A stretch of 64,000 nucleotides of DNA, taken from the sequence record PP434429; one strand, written 5' to 3'. Below, piece after piece: positions 3,664 to 62,587 of the stretch; position 1 is the stretch's first letter, and every line of letters starts with the position of its first letter. The notes beneath the pieces were generated by a model. It had not been told where the DNA came from and did not search any database. It saw nothing but the letters and a program-made list of their open reading frames with translations. This stretch comes from Escherichia phage LH01. The position numbers and the translations under genes were made by a program.

Positions 3664-5479
3664 AGGACATCCATTCTTTACGAAGTTCTGAATCATCACC
3701 CATCAGCATTTCAAAGAGTTCTTTCCAATTTTCAGGAAGTTTAACTACGTCGTACACAGGGTTCTGAATCATTTCACGATACTCTGACTTTTCAAGGGAG
3801 CCTAATCCCTTGATGTATCGAATACTATGCTTAGGCAGTGTATCTTTAACTTCTTCATACTCAGCTACAGTATAAAACCATTTTTGAGTTTTGCCAATTT
3901 GTGCAATAATTACAGGTGTTTTAACAAAGCGAATACGTCCTTGTTCAAACAATTCAGGCCAATTACTAAAGAAAGCAAGCAAAGCAGGATAAATACTTCC
4001 AAGACCGTCATGATCGGCATCAGTCATAATTGCAATATTACGATAGTTCGTATTCTCTGCCTTTTCACCAAGAATAAGACCCGTGATAGCACAGATATCA
4101 AAGAGCTCTTTGTTCTTCATCATATCAGCATATGACATACCCCAGCTATTCATCACCTTACCACGTAATGGGAATCCGCCGTGTAGTTCACGGTCACGAA
4201 CATCAATGAGATAACCAATTGCCGAATCACCTTCTGTTAAAAACAATGTCGTATCTGCATCTTTACCACATTGGTTAGCTTTAATATGCTTATGAACCTT
4301 AGCTTTAGTTGCCTTTTTAGCTGCTTTAGTTTCTGCAGCCTTTTCTGCCGCCAATTTACGAGCTAATGCTGCTTCAACAATAGGCATAATCAAGGCTTCA
4401 TTTTTAAGAAGTGCCTGAGCAATTTTCTTAGCATCTAATTGGATATGATTACGAATATCACCATACGTTGACGTTAAACGTTCTTTAGTCTGGGAATCAA
4501 AACGCATGTTGCTCATGTCTCTAATAAACATCAACATTGTGAGACATTCTTTAACACGAGCTTTAGTGACTTCAATACCCTTATATTTCTTTTTAATACC
4601 CGGCAAAAGATGTTCGCAGATATCGTCCATTACACATTCAACATGATGTCCACCATTTTTAGTATGGATGTTATTCACATAAGTTAAATGACGGAAGCCA
4701 TCTGGTGATGTTGTGAATGCTATAGAGACTTTATCATTTTCTTGAATGATGTTATCTTCACCAAATTGTTTAGCAAATCGTTTAAAATTACCATCGACCT
4801 TTTTACCATTAAATGTGAACTTGATATCAGGATAAACGACTGCCAATGTTTGAAGTCGGTCTAAAGTAATATCTAAATAAATTTGAGATAAATTATGATC
4901 TTCAAATGAAGTGAAATCAGGAGTGAAGATTACTTTAGTGCCTTTACCTTTAGATTTCTTAGAAGACCATGATTTGTTTTCCATTCCGTTTGAACAGTTA
5001 ACAGTGATTTCATTTTCGCCATCTGACGTGATGCCTGTAAACAACGTAGAGAAGATATTAGTCAAACTACTCCCGACGCCGTTCATACCACCAGTCTTGC
5101 GTTCAGAGTCATCGCCAAAGTTACCACCAGCTTTTGGAATAGTCCAGGCTGCTACAGGACCAGGAATTTGTTCACCTGTTTGGTCGGTAACTAAACCTTG
5201 AGGAATACCACGTCCGTTATCTTCCACCGAAACTTGATTATTTTTAATTTGCACATCAATTTTATTTGCAAACTTAAATGATGTACGAATAGCTTCATCA
5301 ACCGAGTTGTCAATAATCTCATCGATTAATTTAACCAGACCAGGAACATATTCAACTTGTTGATATTTACCAAACAAAAAACGCTCATGTGCTTCTTTAG
5401 CAGAAGAACCAATATACATGCCACTACGTTTCTTAATATGTTCTACATCTGACAGTACCTTAATTTCATTTTTAATCAT
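3662..5479 (-). CDS. 39: DNA topoisomerase II large subunit (GyrB-like ATPase), single continuous ORF
   Basis: 605-aa ORF; GHKL ATPase and GyrB-type motifs (DNGRGIP, GGMNGVGSS); AGGAG RBS before ATG 5479; the size equals T4 gp39 plus gp60. Confidence 0.9.
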   Translation of the reverse strand: MIKNEIKVLSDVEHIKKRSGMYIGSSAKEAHERFLFGKYQQVEYVPGLVKLIDEIIDNSVDEAIRTSFKFANKIDVQIKNNQVSVEDNGRGIPQGLVTDQTGEQIPGPVAAWTIPKAGGNFGDDSERKTGGMNGVGSSLTNIFSTLFTGITSDGENEITVNCSNGMENKSWSSKKSKGKGTKVIFTPDFTSFEDHNLSQIYLDITLDRLQTLAVVYPDIKFTFNGKKVDGNFKRFAKQFGEDNIIQENDKVSIAFTTSPDGFRHLTYVNNIHTKNGGHHVECVMDDICEHLLPGIKKKYKGIEVTKARVKECLTMLMFIRDMSNMRFDSQTKERLTSTYGDIRNHIQLDAKKIAQALLKNEALIMPIVEAALARKLAAEKAAETKAAKKATKAKVHKHIKANQCGKDADTTLFLTEGDSAIGYLIDVRDRELHGGFPLRGKVMNSWGMSYADMMKNKELFDICAITGLILGEKAENTNYRNIAIMTDADHDGLGSIYPALLAFFSNWPELFEQGRIRFVKTPVIIAQIGKTQKWFYTVAEYEEVKDTLPKHSIRYIKGLGSLEKSEYREMIQNPVYDVVKLPENWKELFEMLMGDDSELRKEWMS

Positions 5480-12070: not shown

Positions 12071-12145
12071 CTCTTTTTTCATAAAATGCTTTAATTTTTT
12101 ATGTGTTATAATGGTTCTGAGTTCCATCCGGTTATTCCAATCCAG

Positions 12146-12754
12146 TCAGTAACCGACAATAGACAGATTCCAGATTGTATAACGTCCATCTTGAATAATA
12201 GAATCTACACGCAGTGTAGTCCCTATAGGGAGCATAAATTCACATTCGTCAGATATAAGTCTAGCATTAGACCGTCTTGTCGCTTCAGGGAAAGCTCCAT
12301 TGAACTCACAAGATGGCGCAGCCAGAATCATGTTAAGCATATGTTCACGGAAGTTGAAAGCAAATGGTGCATCTTTGATGCAGAACATATTAAATGTTCC
12401 ATAAAAATTATATGAAGCGAAGTTACGTGCTACACCAAACACCGGACTAAAGCTCATTACTCTGTCAAATTTAATAATACTACCAATGCCTTTATCATCG
12501 AGTGTGGCCATAGTTTTCTTAGAGATTCCACGATACATTGTCTCAGGAACTGAAGACGTCCAATTTCTACGAACGATTGAACTTAACTCCTGTTGAATAC
12601 AGTCTGGCTTGTTTTCCATACACTGCCAAAGGATGCTTTGTTCATTATCGTTGAATTGACTATCAATTTCGTACTGCAATTCATCTTGATATTCGGGGCA
12701 TTGAGCACGGCGAACCATTTCCTCAATTTCACATTCATTATACGGCATAAACAT
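12146..12754 (-). CDS. ModA/ModB-family ADP-ribosyltransferase
   Basis: 202-aa ORF; R-S-E triad pattern: MYRG (Arg), SFSPVFG (S-x-S), DECEFMLP (E-x-E); AGGAG RBS. Confidence 0.7.
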   Translation of the reverse strand: MFMPYNECEIEEMVRRAQCPEYQDELQYEIDSQFNDNEQSILWQCMENKPDCIQQELSSIVRRNWTSSVPETMYRGISKKTMATLDDKGIGSIIKFDRVMSFSPVFGVARNFASYNFYGTFNMFCIKDAPFAFNFREHMLNMILAAPSCEFNGAFPEATRRSNARLISDECEFMLPIGTTLRVDSIIQDGRYTIWNLSIVGY

Positions 12755-12811: not shown

Positions 12812-13393
12812 CTAAAAATTCAACATTTTTAAATGAATGATTTTGTATAATCGAGATAAAGGGTCATATTCTAAGTCTTCAATTTCCACAATCTCAAATC
12901 GAGAGATGCCTGAGACCATGTACTCTTGTTCAGATTCAATCATATCTAGGACGTCAACACGCGTTTCTTCCATAACATGCTTAGGATTCTTTCCGGCGAG
13001 TACAATGTTAACCATGTTTTGGTAGTAATCAAAAATGAATGGAGCATTCCTGAGACTAAGAATAGTGTACGTCTGATATTCCCATCTCCCAGAGAATTGA
13101 CGAGCTGTACTGAAATCAGTTGTGAACGATGTTACTCGTCCAGGAGACCAATGACATCCAACAGAAAGAAGGGAAAGACGTTCTACTTCTTCTGGAGTTA
13201 CACCACGGTAGAGTTCTACTGGTACTGCAGAAGTCATATGCTTACGAACAAGATGGTCTAATTCATAGTGGAAATCCGGGTCTTCCTTAGAATCAGTGCA
13301 AGCCCAGAGAATGTTTTGTTCTTGGCGGGTGAATTTGCTATCAATCAGATTTGTTAGGTATTCGCGTTCTTGAAGTTCAGATTGACATGTCAT
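12812..13393 (-). CDS. ModA/ModB-family ADP-ribosyltransferase (second copy)
   Basis: 193-aa ORF; LYRGV, SFTTDFSTA, ESEQEYMVSG (R-S-EXE); GGAGG RBS before ATG 13393. Confidence 0.7.
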   Translation of the reverse strand: MTCQSELQEREYLTNLIDSKFTRQEQNILWACTDSKEDPDFHYELDHLVRKHMTSAVPVELYRGVTPEEVERLSLLSVGCHWSPGRVTSFTTDFSTARQFSGRWEYQTYTILSLRNAPFIFDYYQNMVNIVLAGKNPKHVMEETRVDVLDMIESEQEYMVSGISRFEIVEIEDLEYDPLSRLYKIIHLKMLNF

Positions 13394-58750: not shown

Positions 58751-58963
58751 TTAATTTTGGCCAGTATTTATTTTTCGCCTTTGGACGGCCTTAACATCTG
58801 CGAGGTATTTTTCCAGCTTGCGCTTGCGTGTATAATCAGCTTTAGAACCAGTTTGACGGATATCCTCGTTTAAATGAGAAATAGAATGTCCTAATTCTCT
58901 TCGGATTTCATCCAATTGGGTTACAGTAAGATTACGAAGTTGTCTTTCGTTTAATTGCTGCAT
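58751..58963 (-). CDS. hypothetical small basic protein
   Basis: 70-aa ORF from the track. Confidence 0.4.
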
Positions 58964-58990
58964 ATATACCTCTTGGTTAGATATTAGTAT

Positions 58991-59572
58991 TTATAACAAC
59001 CCTGTCAAATCATTCCAATGCTTCCGGCATAATGACACATATCTATCGGTATCACCAATTTCAATTTGACTGCCATCTGTAATTGGAAGTCCGTCTTCCG
59101 TGACTCTAGCTACCATTGTGGCCTTTTTACCGCAATGACAGACACCTTTAAGTTCAACAAGCTTATCGGCAATAGCCATTAATGCTTGAGAACCTTCAAA
59201 TAGATTACCTTTAAAATCTGTTCGTAGTCCATATGCCATTACCGGCACATTGTATACGTCAACAATACGACTAAGTTGATACACCTTTTCAGTAGTTAAG
59301 AACTGAGCTTCGTCAACAAATACACAGTGAATATCCTTTTGTGCTGCAGCCCATTTATAGAATTCAAAGATATCCATGTCTTTTGTAATTATATTGGCAT
59401 CCTGACGAATACCAATACGAGAGACTATTTCACCTTTTGAATCACGAGTATCAATAGCCGGTTTAAGAACTAATACACCCATGCCACGTTCTTTATAGTT
59501 ATGTGCGGCAGTAAGTAATGAAGCAGACTTACCAGCGTTCATAGCGGCATATGTAAAAATTAAACTAGCCAT
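58991..59572 (-). CDS. tk: thymidine kinase
   Basis: 193-aa ORF; P-loop AMNAGKS, VDEAQF, C-terminal zinc site CHCGKKA. Confidence 0.9.
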   Translation of the reverse strand: MASLIFTYAAMNAGKSASLLTAAHNYKERGMGVLVLKPAIDTRDSKGEIVSRIGIRQDANIITKDMDIFEFYKWAAAQKDIHCVFVDEAQFLTTEKVYQLSRIVDVYNVPVMAYGLRTDFKGNLFEGSQALMAIADKLVELKGVCHCGKKATMVARVTEDGLPITDGSQIEIGDTDRYVSLCRKHWNDLTGLL

Positions 59573-59581
59573 AAGAGTCCC

Positions 59582-59764
59582 TTATAGTGAATTCACGTAG
59601 TCAATGAGTTCTTGTTCTTTCCTGTCAAATGATTCCAACAATGCTTGATATTCTTCATCTGTTAAAGGAGCATATTCATCGTACGCATTGGTGGCTGCTT
59701 GCTCATCCAATAGGTCATGGATAAGTTCGAACAGTTTAGTTTTCTCTTCTTTAGTCAATTTCAT
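59582..59764 (-). CDS. hypothetical small acidic protein
   Basis: 60-aa ORF from the track. Confidence 0.4.
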   Translation of the reverse strand: MKLTKEEKTKLFELIHDLLDEQAATNAYDEYAPLTDEEYQALLESFDRKEQELIDYVNSL

Positions 59765-59988
59765 TTAGGTTCACCTTCTTTAACGAAATCTGGGTAAGGG
59801 TAAAATCCTGAGTAAAACCCTTCACCTTTATGATTGCTACAACCTTTGTTCGAACAGTAACACCAATAATCAAAATCACAGGCCATTTCGTCATTGCATA
59901 GAGCAAAAACTACAGGCCATTCGCATTTTTCGCATTTAGCACCTGTAAGAATTTTTGTTTGACTCATAACCACGTCACCTGCATGCAA
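59761..59988 (-). CDS. Cys-rich small protein
   Basis: 75-aa ORF with multiple Cys pairs (CEKCEW...CYCSNKGC). Confidence 0.4.
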   Translation of the reverse strand: MHAGDVVMSQTKILTGAKCEKCEWPVVFALCNDEMACDFDYWCYCSNKGCSNHKGEGFYSGFYPYPDFVKEGEPK

Positions 59989-60191
59989 TATTCTTCGACA
60001 TGCTTTTTACGACCTTTCTTATCGATAAAGGTGTATTCCATAAAGCGTCCATGATAACGACGTTCAACATCGTGAGGGGTGTTAATAGGACACTTAGTCT
60101 GACGAATTTCTTCCCATTCACGAATAATAACTGCTTTATTCTTTGGGTCATATGGGTGCGGATAGTGTACATTCATAACAATGGTTCCCAA
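59964..60191 (-). CDS. hypothetical small protein
   Basis: 75-aa ORF from the track; start uncertain. Confidence 0.35.
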   Translation of the reverse strand: MGTIVMNVHYPHPYDPKNKAVIIREWEEIRQTKCPINTPHDVERRYHGRFMEYTFIDKKGRKKHVEEYCMQVTWL

Positions 60192-60640
60192 TCAACAATC
60201 ACAATTTCTAGTTTAGTGGAATACGTATCCAGAATCTCTTCGATAATATCCCAGTTTCCACCGCCTATACCTGCACCAATTCTTGGCATGTAAATCACAG
60301 GCTTTGTTATCTTATTCTTTCCGAATTCATTTAATTCTATTATACAATTCATTAAAGCAGAGTACTCAAAATTAGGTCCCGGCTCAAACTGCGTATAAAG
60401 ATTAAAGCAATAAGCTTTATGGGTCTTAAAATATTTTTCATAAACCGAATAAGTCCCGAGTTTAGACTCGTCTCCGAATTCGGTTTGAAGTTTATCGGCT
60501 TCCAGAATTTTTGGATAAGCCTTTGCTAATTGTCCTGCCACACCGGCGCCCATTGTATGAAAACAATTACACCCATGAGCAATATTATTACCTTTAGAAA
60601 ACAGGGCGACAATATCGCCCTTGATATAGTTTTTAATCAC
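60173..60640 (-). CDS. macro-domain protein (ADP-ribose binding/processing)
   Basis: N-terminal NNIAHGCNCFHTMGAGVAGQL and C-terminal PRIGAGIGGG match the two macro-domain glycine-rich motifs; no ATG start, so GTG at 60640 or TTG at 60670. Confidence 0.6.
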   Translation of the reverse strand: MIKNYIKGDIVALFSKGNNIAHGCNCFHTMGAGVAGQLAKAYPKILEADKLQTEFGDESKLGTYSVYEKYFKTHKAYCFNLYTQFEPGPNFEYSALMNCIIELNEFGKNKITKPVIYMPRIGAGIGGGNWDIIEEILDTYSTKLEIVIVDWEPLL

Positions 60641-60980
60641 TTGCTGCAAGTCCTCTAGTATAAGAGTCAACTAGGCGGTCCACCATAGAATTGCATGCTG
60701 CCTTATCTTTAGGTTCCGCCACCGAGCATTCTAATATTTGCCATTTTTTATAGTATCTTTTAATTAAGGTAGACGCCTTGAACCTACTAGACGCCCCATC
60801 TTTTTCTCCGTCTTTATACGCATATAACAATTTTTGTGAAAAATCTACTTTACACTCTTGACTTTTACCACAATAATCAGACGCCGTTCTGTTTGTATAC
60901 TCCGTTACATCAGTATATGTAGTATTAGCAAGAGCGTTAAATGAAACCAAGCCAACTATTAAAGCTAACATTTTGGTCAT
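60633..60980 (-). CDS. secreted protein
   Basis: 115-aa ORF; signal peptide MTKMLALIVGLVSFNALA; four Cys; ATG overlaps the upstream stop. Confidence 0.45.
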   Translation of the reverse strand: MTKMLALIVGLVSFNALANTTYTDVTEYTNRTASDYCGKSQECKVDFSQKLLYAYKDGEKDGASSRFKASTLIKRYYKKWQILECSVAEPKDKAACNSMVDRLVDSYTRGLAASD

Positions 60981-61519
60981 TCTTTTATTTCCAGTAGTTT
61001 ATTTGATTTAAGGTAATTAGCCTTTTCTAGGACTTCAGAAGCATATTTACTTCCAGCACCTGTCTTCCATCCCGCATTATATGAGGATACAGCTTTTCTT
61101 ATATCCCCGTTATGTATATTTAACCAATAAGAAAATTCGATATAAGCCCATCTGGCTGAATTAGACCGCTTAGATAGCATTTTCTTAATTTGGGCATCAG
61201 TCATATTATAACCAAGCTGGTTAATTCTTGCCCTCATTGTCGGTAGATAATTTTGGAACATTCCATACGCATGGTGACCTTTCTTATCTTTAAGATTAAT
61301 ACCGGCAGATGATTCCTGCCATAGTATTGCGGCCATTATGTATCCAAGTCCTTTCTTATGCATATTTTCATGCGTTTTAAATTTTCCATCCTTAGAAAAC
61401 TGTTCCCCAAACTGATAAGCATAATTCAAGTTATCGAGTTGGACATTACTAAAAGTATGCTCGGAGCTATGTGCTGATAACGAAAGAGCAAATAGACCAG
61501 CGAGTAGTGCTTTTCTCAT
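60977..61519 (-). CDS. secreted lytic-transglycosylase-like protein (SLT/lysozyme fold)
   Basis: 180-aa ORF; signal peptide MRKALLAGLFALSLSAHS; ILWQESS...YGMFQ resembles the SLT catalytic Glu-Ser and GLMQ motifs. Confidence 0.5.
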   Translation of the reverse strand: MRKALLAGLFALSLSAHSSEHTFSNVQLDNLNYAYQFGEQFSKDGKFKTHENMHKKGLGYIMAAILWQESSAGINLKDKKGHHAYGMFQNYLPTMRARINQLGYNMTDAQIKKMLSKRSNSARWAYIEFSYWLNIHNGDIRKAVSSYNAGWKTGAGSKYASEVLEKANYLKSNKLLEIKE

Positions 61520-61527
61520 GTTTACCT

Positions 61528-61986
61528 CTAGATTTTAATCACTGCTTTAGAAGCTTTTCCTGGTAGCCGTTTACTGTTAATAATAGCCATTCTGCATTGA
61601 AGAGTCTTCATTTTGAATGCTGGATTTTCGCGACAAACTGTAAGTCCTAACCAAAGATTTCCATCAGTTATTTCTAAACGGCCTGGGCGATATTCGACAC
61701 CTTCGACAAAATCTTCATCAACATCTGGACGTGCCGGCATTGATAAAAATTCTGCAACTTCTTTAACATGATTTTTTACTTTATGAAATAATTCAAAAAC
61801 GTAATTCTCATCTATTTCTCTCTGGATGGCACGATCTAAGAGATGTTGAGAATACTTGATATGAAAGCCTGGTAGTCCAAGAGACTTTGCAGCATCTTTT
61901 ATACCGGCATTTATTTTGCGGAACTCCGTTTCAAAGATTCGACGGAGTTTATTACGGCGGATAAAAACTTCCGAATTGATAGTCAT
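61528..61986 (-). CDS. hypothetical protein at the regB (endoribonuclease) position
   Basis: 152 aa from ATG for MTINSEVFIRRNKLRR; size and location fit T4 RegB; GAGGAG RBS and early promoter upstream. Confidence 0.5.
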   Translation of the reverse strand: MTINSEVFIRRNKLRRIFETEFRKINAGIKDAAKSLGLPGFHIKYSQHLLDRAIQREIDENYVFELFHKVKNHVKEVAEFLSMPARPDVDEDFVEGVEYRPGRLEITDGNLWLGLTVCRENPAFKMKTLQCRMAIINSKRLPGKASKAVIKI

Positions 61987-62014
61987 TTTGATTTCTCCTC
62001 TAGTTGACAAGTCT

Positions 62015-62043
62015 ATAGTAACACAACTAGAGGAGAAGTAAAC
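62015..62043 (-). promoter_or_regulatory. early-type promoter (-35 GTTTAC, -10 TACTAT)
   Basis: GTTTAC, 17 nt, TACTAT about 29 nt upstream of ATG 61986. Confidence 0.45.
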
Positions 62044-62342
62044 TACTCTTTGAAAGGAATTAACTTTTTAACTGCTTTAGATACTTCGTCACGAACCTGA
62101 TGGAAGTTCTTGAGCTGTTCAAGGCGTTGTTCGTAATACGCAATCTCATCTTCTTCAAGACAATCGTCAGCGTCTTCTTTCAGATATGCCTTGTACTCAT
62201 TAAAGAGGACCCATAGGCGGTTCTCAAAGTCATCAAGGCTTTGAATTTTCTTGTGCTTCGGAACAAGGCCAAAAGGATTGCTTTCAGTTATGCGTCTAGA
62301 CGCTTCATAATGAGTTCCAAAGCCTGATAGGATTTGAGCCAT
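62043..62342 (-). CDS. hypothetical protein
   Basis: 99 aa from ATG for MAQILSG; ATG overlaps the upstream stop (TAATG). Confidence 0.45.
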
Positions 62343-62587
62343 TAGTATTTTTCCTCTGGTTGAAATACCGCACGACAAGCCCACATACTAGCTTCCTTTA
62401 GGCGTTCTTTAGCACAGTTCAATTGGGACAAAGCTGTCAAAGCTTCAGGAGTATTCGCAGACAACGCTTCTTCCGCCAAGGCATCGAAAATAAGCCCTAA
62501 TCGAACTTCTGCATCTTTAATAGCGTTCACTTTACCGATTTTATCATCGGTATGCGGCTTGTAGCCTTTGATGTCTTCAATCGACAT
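62342..62587 (-). CDS. hypothetical small protein
   Basis: track ORF trimmed to internal ATG (MSIEDIKG); overlaps a neighbour, weak. Confidence 0.3.

Follow-up and report, generated by a model that had tools for sequence, protein, structure and literature searches.

The interval between tk and regB of Escherichia phage LH01 (sequence record PP434429) contains an open reading frame with the signature of a macro domain, which raises the question of what such a protein does for the phage and, if it reverses ADP-ribosylation as had been proposed from the sequence, whose ADP-ribosylation that would be. Here we report the analysis of the 64,000-nt stretch of DNA that carries this frame (hereafter the window, to which all coordinates refer unless another phage is named). 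The gene is already known: it is the counterpart of T4 tk.4 (adfM), whose macro-domain label is about 20 years old, an identity that the original prediction had not recognised. We consider it likely that the product is a stand-alone macrodomain enzyme, an ortholog of Tk.4/AdfM that reverses the DNA modification made by the toxin DarT2.

In the list of open reading frames of the 64-kb window, the macrodomain frame is found on the minus strand at 60173..60670, opened by TTG and 165 aa in length. It lies, as originally stated, in the tk-regB interval, with both flanking genes confirmed by Pfam. The order of the block (regB, vs.1, vs, macro, the tk.3-type DUF7202 gene, a phage zinc-binding domain, DUF7438, tk) is that of T4 and of Escherichia phage vB_EcoM_SQ17, the best match of the window phage, which belongs to the RB69-like T-even genus Mosigvirus. 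The genes referred to below are:

58991-59572: tk, Pfam-confirmed
59964..60176, minus strand: tk.3-type DUF7202 gene (Pfam DUF7202, E=4.2e-37)
60173..60640, minus strand: macrodomain CDS (T4 tk.4 / adfM ortholog), 155 aa, 468 nt, GTG start, TGA stop
60633..60980, minus strand: vs, valyl-tRNA synthetase modifier (PHROG 1256, E=5e-35; synteny with T4 and SQ17)
60977-61519, minus strand: vs.1, upstream of vs
61528-62010: regB, Pfam-confirmed
~12143-12748 and ~12881-13336, minus strand: two adjacent ModA/ModB-like ADP-ribosyltransferase genes (tblastn)

The start of the gene had been left uncertain between GTG and TTG, and sequence comparison now places it almost certainly at the GTG at 60640-60638. 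In the alignment, T4, KMB42, phiR1-RT, Metamorpho and Cronus begin with ATG and 'MI..' at the column of this GTG, and all five have in-frame stops just 5' of the start. SQ17, with 99.4% identity to the window in this region, has the identical GTG and is annotated with a 468-nt CDS; a GAGGA at the position of 60651-60655 is common to T4 and KMB42; and relatives with less than ~85% identity align by tblastn only from residue 11 of the 165-aa frame. From the ATG column of the orthologs, the upstream stops, the SQ17 annotation and the GAGGA, the coding sequence was set to 60173..60640, with the same 155 aa as T4 Tk.4; the range 60173-60670 given originally is a real open frame, but only the maximal one. 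A start at the TTG at 60670 was rejected because the orthologs have stops in the 10-codon extension and this region is vs coding sequence, and the macrodomain protein probably does not include these 10 codons. That the gene lacks an ATG was correct in effect, since the sole in-frame ATG (in HTMGAG) follows the first motif. The features of the start region are:

60638..60640, minus strand: GTG start codon, aligned with the ATG starts of the orthologs
60641..60670, minus strand: 10 extra codons of the maximal frame, from the TTG at 60670; the DNA codes for the Vs C-terminus
60651..60655, minus strand: Shine-Dalgarno sequence GAGGA within the end of vs, 10 nt before the GTG

The overlap with the upstream gene that had been noted is real, but with the GTG rather than the TTG as start it measures 8 nt instead of 38 nt: the vs stop is at 60633-60635, and the last 8 nt of vs (60633-60640) are inside the macrodomain CDS. 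In T4, tk.4 starts with ATG instead of GTG, and from the annotated coordinates its overlap with vs comes to 4 nt. At the other end, the TGA of the macrodomain gene overlaps the ATG of the DUF7202 gene (ATGA, 60173-60176), and the DUF7202 gene is annotated in SQ17 with a start equivalent to 60176. Given the 8-nt overlap, vs and the macrodomain gene are probably translationally coupled. A scan of 58900-62500 for a dedicated promoter recovered 10 sigma-70-type sites versus 11.4 +/- 3.4 expected, and its coverage was limited to this type, which leaves aside the T4-specific early and middle promoter types. The overlapping gene ends and the lack of sigma-70-type promoters above chance point to polycistronic, translationally coupled expression, in which the protein would be made from the GTG within an overlapping minus-strand run of regB, vs.1, vs, tk.4, tk.3 and onward.

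A perfect 8-bp hairpin, AGGGCGAT-ATT-GTCGCCCT followed by GTTTTCT, is present at 60603-60621 on the minus strand, 19 nt downstream of the GTG. It was flagged as terminator-like, with a fold z-score of -1.57, and is kept in T4, KMB42 and SQ17 and absent from phiR1-RT, Metamorpho and Cronus. A role as functional terminator was rejected on the grounds that the z-score is only -1.57 and that the stem is limited to the T-even phages of E. coli; the conserved KGDIVAL codons probably produce the hairpin incidentally.

Both IAHGCNCFHTMGAGVAG and MPRIGAGIGGGNW are present in the macrodomain frame, and the two glycine-rich motifs reported originally, MGAGVAG and PRIGAGIGGG, are read in it. The Pfam family Macro (PF01661) matches with 28.4 bits, where the gathering score is 22 (E=1.7e-6; model positions 2-117 of 118), and PHROG 335 ('phosphatase') matches with E=6.9e-67. 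No second macro domain was found when the family profile was run against all six-frame ORFs of the window. The alignment with T4 Tk.4 (NP_049723) has 132 of 155 residues identical (85%) and 146 of 155 similar, without gaps, and the order vs - tk.4 - tk.3 of T4 matches that of the window; the gene is the ortholog of T4 tk.4 / adfM by position and by sequence, in a Mosigvirus rather than a Tequatrovirus such as T4. The T4 protein is annotated 'phosphatase; contains A1pp phosphatase motif', and a match of tk.4 orthologs to the A1pp (macro) domain has been in print since 2006 (PMC1524935).

Homologs were detected by tblastn in 2798 of 50,697 phage records, from phages of Escherichia, Klebsiella, Salmonella, Pseudomonas, Vibrio, Acinetobacter, Aeromonas and other hosts; identity was 80-90% in 225 of the matched records and below 60% in 2409. 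Macro domains in general were found in ~41% of myoviruses in a 2022 survey (PMC9503650). T4 Tk.4, 85% identical to the window protein, is only 58% identical to that of its fellow Tequatrovirus KMB42 (compared loci: T4 4926-5390; KMB42 601-1077), and the first ~50 nt of the tk.4 coding sequence are identical in the two. Two types of tk.4 allele are thus in circulation, which suggests an exchange of alleles, or mosaicism, between T-even genera.

An AF2 model of the 155-aa protein, computed from an alignment that did not include the T4 sequence, had a pLDDT of 95.9 and consists of a macro domain only, with the three-layer alpha/beta/alpha macro fold. A fold outside the macro superfamily, which was looked for as evidence against the assignment, was not what the model gave; profile, high-confidence model and fold search together bear out the macro-domain reading. 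The top group of the fold search comprised BT1257 (2AFC; score 18.1), yeast Poa1p (17.3), the DarG macrodomain of M. tuberculosis (17.1), and human TARG1 and Thermosipho DarG (16.6 each), and a second group of coronavirus, alphavirus, PARP and MacroD-type macrodomains scored at most 13.7. Foldseek and PDB sequence-profile searches returned the same set plus SCO6735 of S. coelicolor (5E3B, E=1.3e-14), and DarG was the sole match among the models of defence systems. By these structure and profile neighbours, the modelled protein belongs to the TARG1/DarG/Poa1p-like (ALC1-like) macrodomain class, in which TARG1/OARD1, Poa1p and BT1257 are its best neighbours in sequence and structure.

Conservation was counted in 120 homologs retrieved, for the following motifs:

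60533..60577, minus strand: first ADP-ribose-binding loop, H22-G-C-N-C-F-H-T-M-G-A-G-V-A-G36
60389..60403, minus strand: N80-L-Y-T-Q84 motif, with Q84 at the catalytic position
60251..60286, minus strand: second glycine-rich, diphosphate-binding loop, P119-R-I-G-A-G-I-G-G-G-N-W130

In the first loop, H22 is present in 117, N25 in 118, and G33 and A35 in all 120 homologs. N80, Y82 and Q84 are likewise present in 120 of 120, and the second loop has P119, G122 and G124 in 118 and W130 in 117; C26 and D49 are also invariant or nearly so. T4 Tk.4 has the same motifs, including Y-T-Q. In the profile alignment, the catalytic residues Lys84 and Asp125 of TARG1 are matched by Q84 and G126 (position 126 is A or G in 118 of 120 homologs), and Q84 also falls on Gln85 in the 'NMIGQHG' segment of SCO6735. 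The residues numbered Lys84 in TARG1 and Lys80 in DarG are equivalent (PMC5179494), and Gln85 of SCO6735 has been equated with both (PMC9411070). SCO6735 was numbered from Val25 in 'AHVCN'; the 5E3B sequence was obtained through a PDB search with a chimera of window residues 1-114 and a C-terminal fragment of SCO6735, and the conclusions on SCO6735 rest on the later profile alignment and not on this query. As judged from these alignments, the Tk.4 family is of a Gln type in which the lysine is absent from the catalytic position, and only in describing this replacement in T4-type AdfM does the analysis go a little further than the literature accessible to us.

These residues set the protein apart from two of its named relatives. 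Membership in TARG1 was ruled out by the replacement of the Lys84/Asp125 dyad with Q84/G126, and membership in DarG by the catalytic residue, the domain architecture and the family cut-off. Whereas DarG (macrodomain structures 5M31/5M3E of T. aquaticus, 5M3I of M. tuberculosis and 7OMU of Thermosipho) has a catalytic lysine (Lys80 in T. aquaticus), a C-terminal DarT-binding domain and an adjacent darT, the window protein has glutamine at this position and is a macro domain only, with vs and the DUF7202 gene as neighbours; against the DarG equivalog NF048014 it scores 30.5 bits, far below the cut-off of 250, over profile positions 4-146 of 338. The Tk.4 family can plausibly do the job of DarG despite these differences.

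The closer counterpart is SCO6735 (PDB 5E3B), a member of the same macrodomain clade that also stands alone without a partner toxin and has Gln85 where the window protein has Q84. The two share H-x-C-N, a motif also common to BT1257 and Poa1p, and P-R-I-G-x-G-x-x-G-G-x-W. An orphan macrodomain, SCO6735 cleaves ADP-ribose off thymidine in DNA and gives protection against DarT; the Q85A variant is inactive, and catalysis is proposed to proceed through a water molecule (PMC9411070). Its activity was upheld with synthetic substrates. The likeness has limits: identity is ~22%; SCO6735 is a cellular, DNA-damage-regulated protein, whereas the window protein is that of a phage; the second key residue of SCO6735, Val25, has G23 as its counterpart in the phage protein; and the mobile loop after its glutamine is 5 residues longer ('gmktg') and carries Lys89 and Lys94, which aid DNA binding, whereas the window protein has QFEPGPNFE at this place, with no lysine and no counterpart of the insertion. 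The strand itself reads N-L-Y-T-Q-F in the Tk.4 family and N-M-I-G-Q-H-G in SCO6735 and BT1257, so that BT1257 has the N-x-x-x-Q motif of the window protein.

A second phage protein has to be kept apart from this family. PhiKZ gp104 is also a stand-alone phage macrodomain directed against DarTG2; it removes DarT2-made ADP-ribose from DNA in vitro, and was named AdfM in Cell Reports in 2026 (PMC13309987). Unlike the window protein with its glutamine, it has the DarG-type F-P-T-K-x-x-W motif with the catalytic lysine, and it is imported into the phage nucleus (PMC13309987). Its sequence, translated from that printed in the same article, aligns with the window protein in BLASTP with 23.9 bits over 23 residues and scores 34 bits against a profile of the Tk.4 family. 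The name AdfM has thus been given independently to T4 Tk.4 (Gln) and to PhiKZ gp104 (Lys), and two distantly related lineages of phage macrodomains, a Lys type and a Gln type, counter DarTG2. Since the glutamine is invariant where DarG, TARG1 and PhiKZ AdfM have the catalytic lysine, the chemistry of T4-type AdfM should be modelled on SCO6735 and not on DarG.

The evidence for a role against DarTG2 comes from T4. A T4 that lacks both adfA and adfN is still resistant to DarTG2, from which a further T4 factor was predicted (PMC11825919). In HIDEN-SEQ, reported in a preprint of November 2025, a T4 transposon library was screened on a host expressing DarTG2; tk.4 was the sole significant hit, its insertions being depleted specifically with DarTG2, and a clean deletion rendered T4 sensitive to DarTG2 (10.1101/2025.11.20.689424). 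The gene was renamed adfM (anti-DarT factor Macrodomain), and removal of ADP-ribose from DNA was proposed from the analogy with the NADAR protein AdfN, the structural similarity to DarG and the knockout (10.1101/2025.11.20.689424). The earlier suggestion that the protein could reverse ADP-ribosylation has in this way gained support from the literature, through the knockout of T4 tk.4, with phage DNA modified by host DarT2 as the target. By this analogy, the most likely function of the window protein is the removal of DarT2-added ADP-ribose from phage DNA; for T4 Tk.4 itself, too, enzymatic DNA de-ADP-ribosylation is what we infer. The window allele differs from that of T4 at 23 of 155 residues.

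The following course of events is proposed. The host toxin DarT2 of DarTG2 would place ADP-ribose on thymine of single-stranded phage DNA, the two glycine-rich loops of the phage protein would hold the ADP-ribose moiety, and the enzyme would cut the bond between ADP-ribose and thymine, so that replication could continue; in effect it would be a phage-borne orphan antitoxin. With Q84 in place of the nucleophilic lysine, the chemistry would probably differ from that of DarG and TARG1; in the mechanism proposed for SCO6735, the essential glutamine holds the distal ribose in place and an activated water attacks it. Two features speak against this reading: the protein has neither the catalytic lysine found in DarG nor the Lys/Asp dyad found in TARG1, and it lacks the extended lysine-bearing loop that aids DNA binding in SCO6735. 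Substrate specificity, moreover, cannot be read from homology, because the nearest relatives include the phosphatase Poa1p and the uncharacterised BT1257.

Other substrates are to be weighed. There is a small chance that the Tk.4-type macrodomain is a broad-spectrum, lysine-independent eraser of host ADP-ribose marks or of signals derived from ADP-ribose; it might then act on other marks, on RNA, other bases or proteins, rather than being a dedicated anti-DarT2 enzyme, and this, if true, would explain its spread (~2,800 phage genomes) beyond the pressure from DarTG2 alone. T-even phages are blocked by CmdTAC, an mRNA ADP-ribosyltransferase system (PMC11618068); evidently, there are defences based on ADP-ribosylation that Tk.4 fails to neutralise. 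It is distinctly unlikely that the protein is instead a small-molecule enzyme, either an ADP-ribose-1''-phosphate phosphatase like Poa1p or a degrader of immune signals or toxins (cyclic ADPR isomers of Thoeris, ADPr-1''P), whether this were its principal activity or an additional one. Poa1p is indeed among the closest relatives in sequence and structure, and the database label 'phosphatase' derives from a Poa1p-like role. But Poa1p, a small-molecule phosphatase with an extra insertion, has neither glutamine nor lysine at the catalytic position (the strand reads CLFTSSFGG), the invariant glutamine aligns with the SCO6735 residue needed for DNA de-ADP-ribosylation, and the T4 ortholog has a single reported genetic phenotype, which concerns DarTG2, a system that modifies DNA (10.1101/2025.11.20.689424).

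The same phenotype could arise if DarT2 were neutralised mainly by binding of the toxin and not by hydrolysis of the adduct, for which we see a slim prospect. The dead Q85A variant of SCO6735 still inhibits DarT in vitro, and more so than dead DarG or TARG1 (PMC9411070), and the phage factors AdfA and AdfB work through DarT binding; the isolated DarG macrodomain with K80A, however, gave no inhibition of DarT (PMC5179494), and the ADP-ribose loops and N80, Y82 and Q84 are invariant in the 120 homologs, which come from many phage groups. This invariance of the pocket favours a catalytic pocket over a surface that tracks a toxin. The original prediction had also linked the macro domain to two ADP-ribosyltransferases of the same genome. 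Two Mod-like genes are indeed present, 30-38% identical to T4 ModA/ModB in tblastn, but they are unlinked to the macrodomain gene, ~47 kb away, and no evidence ties them to it. We regard it as very improbable that the protein tunes host take-over as an eraser or reader of the protein (or RNA-protein) ADP-ribosylation that the phage itself makes with Alt, ModA or ModB, even though a macro domain and transferases co-occur across T-even phages, as they do in the window; homologs are found in many phages beyond the T-even group. The T4 transferases modify arginine, and the substrates of the characterised members of the TARG1/DarG/SCO6735 clade are Glu/Asp esters and thymidine; macrodomains of this clade are not known to reverse arginine-linked ADP-ribosylation. 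As tk.4 insertions are depleted specifically with DarTG2 (10.1101/2025.11.20.689424), no transferase-linked need is evident.

For annotation, the gene should start at the GTG at 60640 and be labelled a Tk.4/AdfM-type macrodomain (anti-DarTG2 factor), in place of the labels now found on the closest records, which are 'hypothetical protein', 'phosphatase' and, in one preprint, 'putative thymidine kinase'. The last, applied to tk.4 of T2 in 2026, is a mis-annotation; in the 2026 preprint, RIL-seq shows the T2 tk.4 mRNA paired with ArcZ, an sRNA of the host, and the protein level is unaffected. With this gene, Mosigvirus is one more T-even genus with a conserved anti-DarT toolkit.

Two observations concern the genes upstream. 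The gene originally described as coding for a secreted protein is vs, and the Vs N-terminus is signal-peptide-like (MTKMLALIVGLVSFNALA), which is odd for a cytoplasmic role as valyl-tRNA synthetase modifier; in HIDEN-SEQ, no T4 gene was depleted more strongly than vs in minimal medium (10.1101/2025.11.20.689424). The vs.1 protein also has a signal-peptide-like N-terminus (MRKALLAGLFALSLSAHS) and a weak match to the SLT lytic transglycosylases (E=0.0012; 18.8 bits, below the cut-off of 21.3), and weak SLT matches of vs.1 were already reported in 2006 (PMC1524935).
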